Shown in pieces: positions 2,565 through 60,613 of a DNA stretch of 64,000 bases; the stretch's first letter is position 1, and each line of letters begins with the position of its first letter. The translations under genes were made by a program, and so were the position numbers. The stretch spans positions 68,894 to 132,893 of the forward strand of contig JAJYXV010000003.1 of NCBI GenBank assembly GCA_021801565.1, given 5' to 3'. Origin of the DNA: a bacterium. GTDB lineage: Bacteria > Patescibacteriota > Minisyncoccia > UBA6257 > GWB1-50-10. Below the pieces are notes generated by a model, which worked only from the letters and a program-made list of their open reading frames with translations, was not told the DNA's origin and ran no database searches.

Positions 2565-2888
2565 ATGGAAGCTCAAATTATAGAAAAAATAAAGCCTGGG
2601 GCAAAAATACGAGTGTGGGAACGCATAAAAGAAGGCGACAAAGAGCGCCAGAGTGCGTTTGAGGGAATCGTACTTGCAAGGAAACATGGCGTGGAATCGG
2701 GTGCAACATTTACTGTGCGTGCAATATTGCAAGAAGTTGGGGTTGAAAAAGTGTACCCGATTAATTCTCCAAATATTGCAAAAATTGAAATTATTTCTGC
2801 ACCAAAAAAAGTGAGACGATCGAAATTGTATTTCTTGAGGGATCTTTCAAGTAAGAAAGTAAGAGAAAAATTGAGACTTACCACATAA
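2565..2888 (+). CDS. rplS: 50S ribosomal protein L19
   Basis: MEAQIIEKIKPGAKIRVWERIKEG...GIVLARKHG matches L19. The ORF track starts at 2517; the internal Met at 2565 is the likely start. Confidence 0.85.
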   Translation: MEAQIIEKIKPGAKIRVWERIKEGDKERQSAFEGIVLARKHGVESGATFTVRAILQEVGVEKVYPINSPNIAKIEIISAPKKVRRSKLYFLRDLSSKKVREKLRLTT

Positions 2889-2967
2889 TACAAAATCTCC
2901 GTTCGAACACCGGGGATTTTATTTGAAAAAAGTAGTAGGGGTGATTATAATGAAAAACACTCCTTGA

Positions 2968-2980
2968 ATATGCGCGGGTG
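2968..2980 (+). repeat. 13-nt direct repeat ATATGCGCGGGTG copying the 5' end of tRNA-Leu (second copy at 3282-3294)
   Basis: Exact 13-mer repeated 314 nt apart, bracketing the GIY-YIG ORF. A D-arm-like segment gcgaagtggcagat follows the first copy. Confidence 0.5.
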
Positions 2981-3037
2981 CCCGCCCATGGCGGATAAGG
3001 CGAAGTGGCAGATTTAACCGCCTTTGGCGGTCGCACT

Positions 3038-3280
3038 ATGGAAGTAATAGTGTATTCAATAAAAAGTTTGAAAGATGGATATCGGTATGTCGGAATTACG
3101 AAAAATCTAGAAGATAGATTGAAGAGGCATAATGGGGGTCATAATATTAGTACCGCGTCCCACGCCCCATTTCAGTTGATTTATGAAGAAGTGTTTTCAT
3201 CTTATAACGATGCAAGAAAAAAAGAGAAATTTTTAAAAAGTGGAGTTGGACGAAAGTTTTTGGATACTTTAATATCTTAA
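3038..3280 (+). CDS. GIY-YIG nuclease domain protein (~80 aa)
   Basis: VYSIKSLKDGYRYVGITKNLEDRLKRHN is the GIY-(x10)-YVG...R...H signature. The ORF track starts at a GTG at 3005; the ATG at 3038 is more likely. Confidence 0.75.
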   Translation: MEVIVYSIKSLKDGYRYVGITKNLEDRLKRHNGGHNISTASHAPFQLIYEEVFSSYNDARKKEKFLKSGVGRKFLDTLIS

Positions 3281-3285
3281 GATAT

Positions 3286-3372
3286 GCGCGGGTGGCGAAA
3301 CTGGCAGACGCACTACCTTGAGGTGGTAGCGCCCGCAAGGGCTTGGAGGTTCAAATCCTCTCCCGCGCACCA
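3286..3372 (+). tRNA. tRNA-Leu (anticodon GAG), CCA encoded
   Basis: Acceptor GCGCGGG/CCCGCGC, anticodon loop ttGAGgt, long variable arm gcccgcaagggc, T-arm ggagg-ttcaaat-cctct, 3' ACCA. Confidence 0.85.
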
Positions 3373-3376
3373 GAAT

Positions 3377-3415
3377 ACAAAAGGAAAGAATTTTAATTCT
3401 TTCCTTTTGTATTTA
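3377..3415 (+). terminator. Rho-independent terminator after tRNA-Leu
   Basis: Perfect hairpin acaaaaggaaagaatt-ttaa-ttctttccttttgt followed by attta. Confidence 0.6.
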
Positions 3416-3437
3416 TAGATATGTGAAGGATTTGAAT

Positions 3438-3560
3438 GAGAAGGGGGTCGGGGGAACGGAAGTTTCCCCGTGTAAGAAAATACTAAAAACCGAGAGGTTG
3501 TTAGGGAGCGAAGCGACGTTCAAATCCTCCGCCAGAGGCGGACAAGTCTCCCGCGCACCG
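3438..3560 (+). ncRNA. Unclassified structured element A, paralogous to element B at 9283-9438, ending in a tRNA-Leu 3'-end-like sequence
   Basis: Shares AAGGGGGTCGGGG and AAACCG.GGG..T..TA.GGAG.GAAGCGA.G with 9283-9438. Its 3' part gttcaaatcctc...tctcccgcgcacc resembles the T-arm and acceptor 3' strand of the tRNA-Leu just upstream. Confidence 0.3.
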
Positions 3561-3625
3561 GATTATTTGAAGTGATTTGAATAGATGGGAAATTAGAAAG
3601 TTGATGAGTTTGATATAATGAACTC

Positions 3626-4768
3626 ATGAAGAAGAGTCAATTTATTGTTTTTGGTATTGTGCTTATAGTACTCTGTGTTGGAGGATATTTTGTCTTTTCG
3701 TACTTTGAAGAATGGCTCCCGTCTTCACCCACTTTTGATACATATAATCTCCCACCAAATTCCTCTACAACAGGAGATAATATTTCAGATAGTATGGTGA
3801 AAGATCCTTATGCAGGATGGAAAATATACACAAATGAAAAATATGGATACTCGATACATTACCCTGGAAATTGGTATGTCGACACGCGCTTTTCGAATAG
3901 AGATTTCAGCACGCGCGGAAGTGGTGATGTGATGGGCGGGGATACGCTGTTCGCAAATTACGAGAATGGCTATGATTACGACATTACGAATATGCCACGG
4001 GATTTCGATTCAATACAGCTTCTCATTTATAAAACCGATCCAAAGATTGTTTTTCTTGATGATTACGTGAAGACGATCAATTTTGTTGGGTTGTATACAA
4101 AAGAAGATATAATGATCCATGGCGTTCCGGGGCTCAAGCTTACCTTCAGTAAAGACAGAGAGCAGCCATCCGCGGATGCAGTAGTATTTTTAAAGATCAA
4201 TGATAGGGTGTTCAACTTCAGTATACGAGATTCCGCGATAAAAGAACTCATAACCAACTCCTTCCGTCCAAGCGAAAAAAATATGCTTCTTTTAAAACTC
4301 CTTAATCAGCATTTTCCTCCATTTGGAATAGTGGATACACCATTCGCATTTATAAACGGGGGATATAAATATTCATACTGTGGAGGAAAGATGCTTGGTG
4401 AAGAGGACTGCAAGAACAATCCAATATATCAAAATACAACAAGCATATATCTTGACGAAGGTGTGCTCTCGTTTGAAAAAACACAAAATGGGATATATTA
4501 TGTCGCAACGATCGTCACGTTCAATGCCGGAGGAACAGGTCAATATAAATATCTTGTCCTTTTGAACGGAACCCCCGATTCCGATCTTTCGTATGTCGCA
4601 AGTGTAGATCTTGGTGATAGGGTGCAAATACACAGTATCTCATTTTCCGAGGGGAAAATTGTTCTCGATATGAATATACATGGACCAAATGATGGACTAT
4701 GTTGTCCAAGTGTTCGTACAACGAAAATATTCGAATTACAGGGAGGAAATTTAATGGAAGTCCATTAA
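3626..4768 (+). CDS. Hypothetical secreted or membrane-anchored protein (380 aa)
   Basis: N-terminal TM/signal anchor FIVFGIVLIVLCVGGYFVF. No recognisable catalytic motif. A TGnTATAAT element lies 6 nt upstream of the ATG. Confidence 0.6.
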   Translation: MKKSQFIVFGIVLIVLCVGGYFVFSYFEEWLPSSPTFDTYNLPPNSSTTGDNISDSMVKDPYAGWKIYTNEKYGYSIHYPGNWYVDTRFSNRDFSTRGSGDVMGGDTLFANYENGYDYDITNMPRDFDSIQLLIYKTDPKIVFLDDYVKTINFVGLYTKEDIMIHGVPGLKLTFSKDREQPSADAVVFLKINDRVFNFSIRDSAIKELITNSFRPSEKNMLLLKLLNQHFPPFGIVDTPFAFINGGYKYSYCGGKMLGEEDCKNNPIYQNTTSIYLDEGVLSFEKTQNGIYYVATIVTFNAGGTGQYKYLVLLNGTPDSDLSYVASVDLGDRVQIHSISFSEGKIVLDMNIHGPNDGLCCPSVRTTKIFELQGGNLMEVH

Positions 4769-9268: not shown

Positions 9269-9282
9269 TTGAATTTTATGTT

Positions 9283-9438
9283 GCGGAAAGGGGGTCGGGG
9301 AAAAACAAATGTGTTTCCTCGTGAAGGAAATAGCCTGCTTTATGCGGGCGTTTAGAAACCGTGGGTTTCTAAGGAGTGAAGCGATGCAACATGGGTGTCA
9401 AAATCATTGATTAAAACCGCCTCTCAGGCGGTTTTTTT
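9283..9438 (+). ncRNA. Unclassified structured element B (paralog of A) with an 8-codon uORF (9384-9410) and an intrinsic terminator (9413-9438)
   Basis: Shares AAGGGGGTCGGGG and AAACCGTGGGTTTCTAAGGAGTGAAGCGATG with element A. It contains AAGGAG-N7-ATG CAA CAT GGG TGT CAA AAT CAT TGA, then aaaaccgcc-tctca-ggcggttttttt. Confidence 0.3.
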
Positions 9439-9509
9439 GTTTGACTTTATTTTTCTCTATGAGAGGATAAATATAGTTTTTATCATTAATATATAATGGA
9501 GGTAACATT

Positions 9510-49837: not shown

Positions 49838-49899
49838 CTGCGGGACTAGGAGTCGGACCTAGATACCGGGATTCAAAGTCCCGTGTCCTACCATTAGAC
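49838..49899 (-). pseudogene. Partial tRNA-Gln copy (62 nt, D-arm to 3' end, no 5' acceptor strand), abutted by the palindrome CCTGCCTGCGCAGGCAGG
   Basis: Identical to nt 49951-50012 of the intact tRNA-Gln, but the 5' side reads gcaggcag instead of TGCGGGATC and cannot pair with the 3' acceptor strand. Confidence 0.5.
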
Positions 49900-49950
49900 C
49901 TGCCTGCGCAGGCAGGCGATCCTCAAATGAATATAAACTCTCGATCACAG

Positions 49951-50021
49951 CTGCGGGACTAGGAGTCGGACCTAGATACCGGGATTCAAAGTCCCGTGTC
50001 CTACCATTAGACGATCCCGCA
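49951..50021 (-). tRNA. tRNA-Gln (anticodon TTG), CCA not encoded, atypical T-loop TCCGACT
   Basis: Minus-strand reading: TGCGGGA-TC-GTCT-AATGGTA-GGAC-A-CGGGA-CTTTGAA-TCCCG-GTAT-CTAGG-TCCGACT-CCTAG-TCCCGCA-G. All stems pair. Position 55 is C rather than U. Confidence 0.7.
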
Positions 50022-60507: not shown

Positions 60508-60613
60508 TTTATAAAGTCCGTAAAGTTTAGAGTTTTTAAAGTATGAAAGAAGAACGAATATGCCACAACTGTCCGCCCAAGGCGGATCAGCCTCGGGCTG
60601 ATAAATATTAACT

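Follow-up and report, generated by a model that had tools for sequence, protein, structure and literature searches.

A minimal GIY-YIG nuclease gene in a probable selfish cassette at a bacterial tRNA-Leu gene

Free-standing homing endonuclease genes of phages are the described systems nearest to the element analysed here, an 80-codon GIY-YIG nuclease gene lodged at a tRNA-Leu(GAG) gene in a 64,000-nucleotide (nt) stretch of bacterial DNA (contig JAJYXV010000003.1; "the window" means this whole stretch). Among the phage enzymes, Seg proteins have 200-plus residues, with separate DNA-binding modules and long recognition sequences. REP and REPIN sequences are short dispersed palindromic repeats in inverted doublets, and the RAYT gene is flanked by such repeats. 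Rickettsia palindromic elements are about 100-150 bp long and lie in intergenic DNA, in RNA genes and in frame in protein genes; we know of no dedicated enzyme for them. A group I intron interrupts cyanobacterial tRNA-Leu(UAA), and the tRNA genes of Thermoproteales carry mobile short introns at non-canonical positions, with bulge-helix-bulge structures, that are spliced from functional tRNAs. To our knowledge, the bacterial UPF0213 proteins, which are small GIY-YIG relatives of the protein studied here, have no assigned role. SegB lies in the tRNA gene cluster of phage T4 (PMC2330249). GIY-YIG homing endonucleases have a bipartite design, one part catalytic and the other DNA-binding, and I-Ssp6803I is cited as the homing endonuclease of a group I intron in a bacterial tRNA gene (PMC2677866).

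Our data suggest that positions 2968-3372 of the window are probably a selfish cassette at a tRNA gene: a minimal nuclease gene sits between the promoter of tRNA-Leu(GAG) and the tRNA, and spreads in a homing-like manner. The front of the cassette is a dead duplicate of the first ~30 nt of the tRNA, broken by two 19-nt hairpin modules. The features of the locus (2923-3559) are these:

2923-2951, plus strand: promoter-like TTGAAA-17-TATAAT, matching the consensus at 11 of 12 positions; kept in the related loci L001, L002 and L098 and in the empty-site relative L096
2968-2980, plus strand: first part of the partial tRNA-Leu copy, with 4 nt from upstream of the tRNA and tRNA positions 1-9 (ATAT GCGCGGGTG); exact repeat of 3282-3294
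2981-2999, plus strand: hairpin module 1, CCCGCCCATGGCGGA-TAAG, 19 nt (C-CCGCC-CAT-GGCGG-A + TAAG), between tRNA positions 9 and 10
3000-3012, plus strand: D-arm piece, GCGAAGTGGCAGA, also of the partial copy; the tRNA itself reads GCGAAACTGGCAGA
3013-3031, plus strand: hairpin module 2, TTTA-ACCGCCTTTGGCGGT, 19 nt (TTTA + A-CCGCC-TTT-GGCGG-T), in the D loop
3032-3038, plus strand: end of the partial copy, CGCACTA, covering the D-stem 3' strand and the first part of the anticodon stem; the ATG begins with its final A
3038-3280, plus strand: GIY-YIG nuclease gene, 80 codons, ATG at 3038, stop at 3278-3280; catalytic domain only
3286-3372, plus strand: intact tRNA-Leu(GAG), called by ARAGORN; Rfam tRNA model 48.8 bits against a gathering score of 29
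3374-3413, unstranded: perfect 19-bp A+T-rich hairpin directly 3' of the tRNA, an inverted-repeat finding
3425-3515, plus strand: core of a structured module, "X"; 87 bits with covariance model R1
3515-3559, plus strand: duplicate of the tRNA 3' end that closes module X, with the T loop and part of the T stem at 3515-3527 and the acceptor 3' strand at 3547-3559
3528-3546, plus strand: hairpin module 3, TCCGCCAGAGGCGGA-CAAG, 19 nt (T-CCGCC-AGA-GGCGG-A + CAAG), an exact insertion between AATCC and TCTCCC

The original prediction described a 13-mer that brackets an ~80-residue GIY-YIG open reading frame (ORF). We found the 13-mer, ATATGCGCGGGTG, exactly at 2968-2980 and 3282-3294 and nowhere else in the window (0.01 expected by chance in 64 kb, one mismatch allowed). 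The D-arm-like segment said to follow the first copy was also there, in register with the tRNA: the repeat findings pair AAGTGGCAGA (3003-3012) with AACTGGCAGA in the tRNA, and TGGCGGTCGCACTA (3025-3038) with TGGCAGACGCACTA. Both ARAGORN and Rfam (Infernal cmscan) recovered the proposed intact tRNA-Leu, which begins 5 nt past the ORF stop codon and shows 100% identity to its counterpart in the empty-site relative L096. The gaps between the tRNA-like pieces, which had been overlooked, are copies of one hairpin motif. CCGCC-N3-GGCGG occurs at 2982-2994, 3018-3030, 3529-3541 and 60573-60585 (4 observed, 0.00 expected). Module 1 is absent at the empty site, and similar modules occur throughout the clade of leucine-associated nuclease genes (the Leu clade). 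Forward modules in this clade have a purine-type loop and a trailing YAAR; module 2 is of the module 1 type but inverted, with a pyrimidine loop and a leading TTTA. Judged from its sequence, 2923-2951 would act as a promoter driving the partial tRNA, the nuclease ORF and the tRNA. The hairpin at 3374-3413, to which hairpins in L098 and L002 are similar, is probably the tRNA-Leu terminator; a G+C-biased terminator scan did not call it.

Relatives with the eno-rluD-L19 context were gathered via the nuclease protein and via L19. Among them the cassette was polymorphic in presence and absence. L001 and L002 showed the promoter, the partial copy with hairpins, the ORF and the tRNA as in the window; the downstream 3'-like piece was not found in either. 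L096, whose L19 is 89% identical, is an empty site: the promoter directly precedes the identical tRNA, and neither an ORF nor fragments are present. L098 keeps a decayed remnant, in which the 5' fragment with hairpin 1 is fused to the final 33 nt of the ORF; after it come the tRNA and then the hairpin terminator and downstream module known from the window. In L100 the tRNA is intact and has no ORF upstream, yet the downstream module is present. In L097 (3440-4291) a 219-residue LAGLIDADG-type ORF (LAGLIDADG_3, 27 bits against a cut-off of 22.5) replaces the GIY-YIG gene between the promoter and tRNA-Leu(GAG). It is preceded by a tRNA-Leu D/anticodon-arm fragment and followed by a different tRNA-Leu(GAG). 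A second endonuclease family appears to use the same strategy at the same tRNA gene.

The nuclease ORF was younger than its surroundings. Nucleotide identity between the window and L001 was 90% in the ORF and 67-77% in eno, rluD, L19, tmk and gyrB. Synonymous divergence (dS) was 0.29-0.47 for the ORF and ranged from 1.0 to saturated for L19, eno and rluD, and the ratio of non-synonymous to synonymous divergence (dN/dS) of the ORF was 0.09-0.23, indicating purifying selection. The low dS together with the low dN/dS suggests that the protein is under selection and was shared between the lineages well after their split. The polymorphic site, the young ORF and the recurrence of the architecture (below) bear out the predicted mobile GIY-YIG cassette of homing-endonuclease type at a tRNA gene. 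As a separate observation, the stretch from tRNA-Leu to tmk (window 3626-4768) differed in each relative, making it a hotspot of gene gain and loss beside the tRNA: the window carries a 380-residue ORF without a Pfam family above cut-off, L001 a Ser_hydrolase gene, L098 an MtN3/PQ-loop gene, and L002 none.

The link to tRNA genes extended across the family. A profile of 20 homologues, run on one-genome-per-species (GTDB) contigs, gave 80 loci, and the ORF could be delimited in 76. Their records were labelled Patescibacteria, Omnitrophota, Ignavibacteria, Bacteroidota, Planctomycetes and others. A same-strand tRNA adjoined the ORF in 58 of the 76 loci; it started 0-40 nt past the stop codon in 39 (Leu, Lys, Ser, Gln, Pro) and ended at most 120 nt before the start codon in 19 (Ser, Met, Val, Asn, Pro, Leu). 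The opposite side of the ORF usually held a partial copy of the adjoining tRNA, which outscored every control window in 43 of 64 tests. By exact 10-mers, a 5' fragment preceded the ORF in 30 of 43 downstream-tRNA loci, a 3' fragment followed it in 16 of 19 upstream-tRNA loci, and tRNA fragments flanked it on both sides in 18 loci. The ATG came 0-3 nt after tRNA-derived sequence in many loci, leaving the ORF essentially without untranslated regions of its own.

The nuclease proteins grouped by tRNA isotype, and one clade comprised all 21 Leu-associated downstream-tRNA proteins, including that of the window, whatever the anticodon. At several Leu loci the acceptor strand of the fragment was unlike that of the enclosed tRNA. 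At L018 the 5' and 3' fragments match each other (GCCGCGG/CCGCGGC), whereas the enclosed tRNA reads GCCGATG. This agreement between the fragments, and not with the enclosed tRNA, suggests that the complete tRNA came with the cassette and that the resident gene was split. L065 and L067, on one 2.98-Mb contig, lie at different tRNA-Ser genes. An exhaustive profile search returned 3,394 clusters at 50% identity (E <= 1e-10), nearly all of 77-140 residues and most of them unnamed or with a generic name only. The literature that we searched on GIY-YIG proteins with tRNA and on UPF0213 and its synonyms describes neither the arrangement nor the hairpins; coverage was incomplete and novelty is unproven. 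The window cassette is one of a large group of probable selfish elements, apparently not yet described, that occupy tRNA genes across many bacterial phyla.

Some loci had further structure. Tandem arrays stood beside an intact tRNA in L060 (2377-3125), L053 (2036-2830), L084 (1800-2300) and L137 (2550-2789). Their units consist of a nuclease ORF plus a partial tRNA with hairpin, or of a partial tRNA and hairpin alone, and look like repeated invasion of one tRNA. L064 (377-735) has a nuclease ORF with an in-frame stop followed by a near-full-length tRNA-Ser(CGA) with a double hairpin in its D loop. The available 377 nt upstream contain no intact tRNA copy, and this is the sole case in which the hairpin-bearing copy might be the only one.

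The conserved hairpins have the form NNNGCC-N3-GGCNNN, and we counted them from 200 nt before to 300 nt after the ORF. They lay beside the ORF in 76 of 81 loci, with 156 in 59 kb compared to 34 in the remaining 323 kb of locus sequence. When GCC-N3-GGC cores near ORFs were collected without requiring pairing, all three outer pairs were complementary in 153 of 176, with 15 different outer triplets; the stem is thus kept by compensating changes around a fixed GCC/GGC core. Outside the Leu clade, two abutting hairpins form a 30-nt double hairpin, a near-perfect palindrome whose first loop is purine-rich (2.69 of 3) and whose second is pyrimidine-rich (0.31 of 3). The Leu-clade unit is 19 nt (hairpin plus YAAR), with one unit forward and one inverted (TTTA plus hairpin) around the D-loop bases CTGGCAGA. 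Extra copies sometimes occur, in several loci one before the anticodon loop. Module 3 of the window is almost identical to the leader hairpin of L015 (TCCGCCAAAGGCGGACAAG) and is missing from the otherwise homologous sequence of L098.

Mapping hairpin blocks onto the adjacent intact tRNA gave 38 exact insertions out of 41, with no tRNA base lost or gained. Every one of the 41 blocks sat in a loop or bordered one. The T loop accounted for 15 (mostly GGTTC|GAATC), the anticodon loop for 11, the D loop for 7 and the D-stem edge 12|13 for 9; a block at position 56 in L032 was assigned to the T loop by eye. Since the blocks sit in dead tRNA copies, their positions tell how the hairpins arrive and not what the cell tolerates. 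The insertions at tRNA loops showed no target duplication. ORF-less mini versions were found at tRNA-Met in L032 and in L082. Cassettes were often bounded by direct repeats that contain hairpins flanked on both sides by a few tRNA bases (L015, whose repeat is 32 nt long, the Lys loci and L055; also L036, L037 and L039), which fits either gene conversion or recombination at hairpins.

Hairpins also occurred away from nuclease genes. The window holds one such copy:

60572-60601, unstranded: solo 30-nt double hairpin, TCCGCCCAAGGCGGA TCAGCCTCGGGCTGA, between tpiA and a 603-residue ORF

This copy lies 12 nt before the ATG of the 603-residue ORF, which has no Pfam match, with no tRNA or nuclease gene nearby. 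Its sequence type is that of the double hairpins beside homologous nuclease genes and of those in a metagenome scan, in which one exact double-hairpin variant was found in at least 120 stretches. Among the matches listed we examined 88 copies: 3 adjoined a nuclease gene, a further 18 had a tRNA no more than 450 nt away, and 67 lay elsewhere, in A+T-rich spacers, in loops of other hairpins and in other repeats. The link between hairpin and nuclease is therefore one-directional. Flanking direct repeats of at least 6 nt accompanied 19.5% of the listed copies compared to 2% of controls; the double hairpin is itself palindromic. In-frame 30-nt double hairpins add SAQGGPASGW to the G/F-rich region of DnaJ (dnaJ, L036 4261-4290, minus strand) and SAQGGPAEGW between DADGF and HPKV in FolD (folD, L024 3921-3950, minus strand). 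Rfam has no family for the double hairpins (searched with seven related loci bearing canonical double hairpins). Two other ideas were rejected. A preference of the hairpins for the loops of any hairpin gave a weak signal, with flanking stems of at least 5 bp at 8.5% of the listed copies and 3.2% of controls. As for spliceable mini-introns, in silico removal of the hairpin restored a tRNA by ARAGORN in just two loci (L064 and L026), and the carriers are truncated.

The 80-residue protein matched Pfam GIY-YIG (PF01541) with 55 bits (E = 9e-15; cut-off 22.6). Both tyrosines of the GIY and YIG motifs are kept, and Y6, Y17, R27, H31 and E63 were invariant among the 20 homologues. The C terminus carries an invariant, clade-specific motif, FLKSGxGRKFL. 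At the sequence level, the N-terminal half through R27/H31 aligned position by position with the I-TevI catalytic domain, and the UPF0213 alignment extended to E63. The closest solved sequences were the UPF0213 proteins BH0048 and EF2693 (1zg2 and 1ywl were named as best matches), then I-TevI and Slx1. AlphaFold modelled an alpha/beta GIY-YIG fold (mean predicted local distance difference test 94), for which Foldseek returned UPF0213, Slx1, At-HIGLE, I-TevI and UvrC. The best superpositions were with BH0048 and with Slx1 nuclease domains (template modelling (TM) score 0.66-0.70, root-mean-square deviation 2.1-2.5 Å, 27-30% identity), and I-TevI was structurally more distant (Foldseek E = 0.17). 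The protein is a single domain without a DNA-binding domain for long sites. Homologues have 77-140 residues, the longer ones mostly through leader read-through.

Slx1 cuts branched and stem-loop DNA by structure and not by sequence (PMC8287910, PMC4407285). By analogy with this recogniser of branched DNA, we infer that the protein recognises shape, which might be the hairpins, a cruciform extruded from the 30-bp palindrome, or a cloverleaf of the single-stranded tRNA gene. Shape recognition would fit insertions restricted to loops. An exact-sequence look-up of the 80-residue protein found no record, and no relatives of the nuclease were found in a viral collection. A phage origin was considered and rejected on this last result and on PHROG and PADLOC matches, which were weak "homing endonuclease" hits only.

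Downstream of the tRNA lies module X, with hairpin A at 3449-3470 (GGAA loop) and hairpin B at 3488-3499 (GAGA loop); positions 3427-3436 show complementarity to the tRNA's T arm. A covariance model built on the core (R1) found module X after tRNA-Leu in the window and in L098, L017, L034 and L100, and after tRNA-Ala in L100 (80-91 bits). The copies outside the window are:

L098, 3643-3770: module X
L017, 2468-2625: module X
L034, 2845-2975: module X
L100, 990-1155 and 3535-3695: module X, two copies

Each of the six tRNA-linked copies has, just before its core, 10-15 nt with perfect complementarity to the adjacent T arm, though the arm varies by lineage, and ends with a duplicate of the last 8-16 nt of its own tRNA. 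The two X cores of L100 are near-identical, follow tRNA-Leu and tRNA-Ala, and are each matched to their own tRNA; directly upstream of both tRNAs there is no nuclease ORF and no 5' fragment. On the homologous contig L101 a GIY-YIG gene lies ~700 nt upstream, just before tRNA-Ile. This gene, another of the kind described here, occupies L101 1-100 and ends just upstream of tRNA-Ile(GAT) at 164-236; the contig also has two module X copies, and several tRNA genes in its genome carry such elements. Rfam has no family for module X, for either the copy at the tRNA or a stand-alone copy in the window, and X was not found in 80 metagenome loci with the double-hairpin pattern, so it is a narrower feature than the hairpins.

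The original prediction held that an ancestral tRNA-Leu had been split by a cassette carrying or regenerating a complete tRNA, with 3516-3553 as its T arm and acceptor 3' strand. The resemblance was confirmed by alignment: 3515-3529 match the T arm at 14 of 15 bases, and 3547-3565 match the acceptor 3' strand and flank at 17 of 19. A complete tRNA does stand beside a disabled partial copy. That 3516-3553 is the other half of the same gene is not proven, since this piece ends the separate module X. Module X and the nuclease cassette each occur alone, so the 5' and 3' tRNA-like pieces of the window need not stem from the splitting of one gene; both may also go back to a single insertion with later deletions between direct repeats. 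We rejected the idea that 3488-3499 (ACCGAGAGGT) is an anticodon loop, with the 5' and 3' pieces meeting at the anticodon stem; it is a conserved GNRA-type hairpin of module X that also occurs after tRNA-Ala.

Two further observations concern structured RNA elsewhere in the window. A stand-alone paralogue of module X lies at 9275-9400, between rplK and a thymidylate-kinase-like gene (R1 match 9285-9377, 48 bits, E = 7e-11). It has a closing helix (ATGTTGC/GCAACAT), three hairpins, a terminator at 9414-9440 and a fold z-score of -3.7, and looks like an unannotated small RNA gene or leader. At 49838-49908 (minus strand), beside tRNA-Gln at 49950-50021, Rfam detected a fourth tRNA (40.1 bits) that ARAGORN did not list.

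We take the comparative data to establish a mobile cassette under selection that sits at tRNA genes, leaves or brings a working tRNA, and has a hairpin that also spreads alone. From this a mechanism can be proposed. The partial copy, the ORF and the tRNA would be transcribed as one unit from the tRNA promoter, and the intact tRNA copy would keep the host viable. The nuclease would break or nick folded or palindromic DNA, either the empty tRNA allele or the hairpin modules, and recombinational repair against the filled allele would then copy the cassette into the empty one, a homing-like gene conversion. In some lineages the cassette would supply its own replacement tRNA. The NNNGCC-N3-GGCNNN hairpins would be the cis-acting partner, probably the structure bound by the nuclease; they also spread alone as a non-autonomous insertion of 15, 19 or 30 nt.

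Several points weigh against this account. We infer the activity and substrate of the nuclease, the repair route and the role of the hairpins, so that every mechanistic step is inference. The low dS comes from 80 codons, and constraint on the nucleotide sequence may contribute to it. L096 could be a precise deletion between direct repeats and not a never-invaded allele. A protein without a DNA-binding domain would not have sequence specificity of the I-TevI or Seg kind, which leaves the choice of tRNA isotype unaccounted for. The 67 of 88 listed double hairpins near neither a nuclease gene nor a tRNA also count against it. Finally, the intact tRNA of the cassette keeps the loops of the presumed target, so there is no obvious self-immunity; the tandem arrays of L053, L060 and L084 may be a consequence, with the intact tRNA sometimes attacked.

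A bolder proposal, which we offer tentatively as a possibility, is that the Slx1-like GIY-YIG protein and the GCC-N3-GGC hairpins form an unrecognised prokaryotic mobile system. A structure-specific nuclease that has no domain for reading sequence would recognise small hairpins or extruded cloverleaf DNA and would drive the exact insertion of 15-, 19- or 30-nt modules into single-stranded loops, its gene nesting in duplicated tRNA genes and the hairpins riding as non-autonomous passengers. The target loops would be the D, anticodon and T loops of tRNAs and the loops of other hairpins, and riders would land even in frame in essential genes.

Other explanations of the locus share much of this evidence. 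The hairpins might be dispersed palindromic repeats of the REP/RAYT type, maintained or mobilised by a GIY-YIG enzyme that is perhaps domesticated, with no homing at all. The tRNA location would then follow from a preference of hairpins for folded loops, and the duplications from recombination between hairpin copies. Among the metagenome matches listed, hairpins far outnumber nuclease genes and are mostly remote from them, and the nuclease gene is nearly always flanked by hairpins. The hairpin-containing direct repeats around many cassettes, the near-perfect 30-bp palindrome with its purine and then pyrimidine loop, and the cleavage of branched DNA by the closest structural relatives also agree with it. 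We nevertheless regard this explanation as unlikely, in that it leaves unexplained an ORF 3-5 times younger than its flanks, the clustering of the proteins by tRNA isotype and the LAGLIDADG gene in the slot of a relative; it overlaps with the selfish-cassette explanation and does not exclude it. Improbable, in our judgement, is a scar of integrase-type or homologous (Campbell-type) recombination, in which a small circle with a tRNA fragment recombined at the tRNA, the nuclease is cargo and the hairpins are att-like sites of a host or lost recombinase. An intact tRNA, a payload and a partial tRNA repeat, together with the mirror image, are the classic island signature; hairpin-including direct repeats bound some cassettes, and the slot downstream of the tRNA holds varied cargo genes in relatives. 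Yet no integrase or recombinase gene lies beside any locus examined, the window region included. The payload is usually only a 240-nt ORF without untranslated regions, the extent of the duplication varies among lineages, and the nuclease is the sole gene constant over ~80 loci.

Purifying selection on the ORF, and a position suited to co-transcription with the tRNA from the tRNA promoter, would also be expected if the nuclease served the host by acting on tRNA genes or transcripts in repair, processing or defence. The partial tRNA with hairpins would then regulate or stabilise the mRNA, and hairpins in the 5' leader, or in the 3' tail of the upstream-tRNA type, could protect mRNA ends. We find this very unlikely: the gene is patchy among close relatives, decayed copies exist (L098, and L064 with its in-frame stop), tandem arrays and pseudo-tRNA debris accumulate, and the presence of hairpins within the coding regions of dnaJ and folD, as well as in intergenic DNA without any relation to the cassette, runs contrary to a dedicated mRNA element. 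An intron is the least credible of the explanations considered. The bulky intron-like arrangement, named as an alternative in the original prediction, would make 2972-3560 an outer tRNA-Leu with a large intron around the endonuclease ORF and a second, inner tRNA. Between them, the two outer pieces do supply both acceptor strands, GIY-YIG genes are typical of group I introns, and the protein has a weak match to NCBIfam grpIintron_endo (E = 0.002, far below cut-off). Against this, Rfam cmscan of 2700-3800 at E <= 10 found only the tRNA and no group I or II model. The outer pieces cannot form a tRNA, with a decayed 5' strand of the T stem and three interrupting hairpins, one of them inside the T stem. 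The cassette occurs without the 3' piece in L001 and L002, and the 3' piece without the cassette in L100; the inner tRNA is followed by its own terminator hairpin. The intron reading is thus unsupported.

If the selfish-cassette explanation is true, the tiny nuclease genes of this very large family acquire a role, as selfish elements that colonise tRNA genes and stay harmless through a kept or imported tRNA. It would account for the tRNA-gene debris and the tandem arrays of pseudo-tRNAs in these genomes, which is relevant to the tRNA annotation of metagenome-assembled genomes, as well as the 10-residue SAQGGPA(S/E)GW inserts in conserved proteins. It would make target choice by nucleic-acid shape testable with the smallest kind of nuclease, and would bear on the origin of homing endonucleases and of palindromic repeat families. 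The protein could also become a tool, as a compact structure-specific cutter.

Compared to known systems, the element appears to work most like a free-standing homing endonuclease gene, with SegB of T4 as the nearest precedent. It shares with the Seg and Mob genes of T-even phages an intron-less nuclease gene among tRNA genes, presence/absence polymorphism, an age younger than the surroundings and preferential inheritance together with its flanks. It differs from them in its 80-residue protein of the catalytic domain alone, which lacks the long-site DNA-binding domain that is a defining feature of those enzymes, its occurrence in cellular genomes, and its partial tRNA duplicate with conserved hairpins. 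In sequence and fold, the protein matches UPF0213/YhbQ and the Slx1 nuclease domain best (Slx1 TM about 0.68). Slx1, unlike the window protein, requires Slx4 and has a RING/PHD-type domain, and the window clade has an invariant C-terminal FLKSGxGRKFL and a fixed genomic setting of its own. As in REP/RAYT systems, palindromic repeats that are dispersed in many copies also flank the one enzyme gene; here the enzyme is GIY-YIG and not an HUH single-tyrosine transposase, the hairpins are 15-nt GCC-N3-GGC units, and the gene lies within a tRNA duplication.

Like Rickettsia palindromic elements, the hairpins insert in frame (dnaJ and folD of relatives), but they are 15, 19 or 30 nt long, are spread over several phyla and have a nuclease gene linked to them. 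Genomic islands and prophages at tRNA genes likewise have an intact tRNA at one end, a partial tRNA direct repeat at the other and a tRNA replacement borne on the insert. In contrast to these, the cassette has no integrase, a payload of a few hundred bases and a partial copy broken by hairpins, and the mirror-image type, which begins with the partial 5' copy, occurs as often as the classical type. Archaeal tRNA introns resemble the hairpins as near-identical short insertions at D-, anticodon- and T-loop positions of different tRNAs, whereas the hairpin carriers are truncated dead copies. With group I introns that encode homing endonucleases, the element shares the targeting of a tRNA gene by an endonuclease-driven mobile element. 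Unlike them it has no ribozyme core, and the host tRNA is kept working by duplication and not by splicing.

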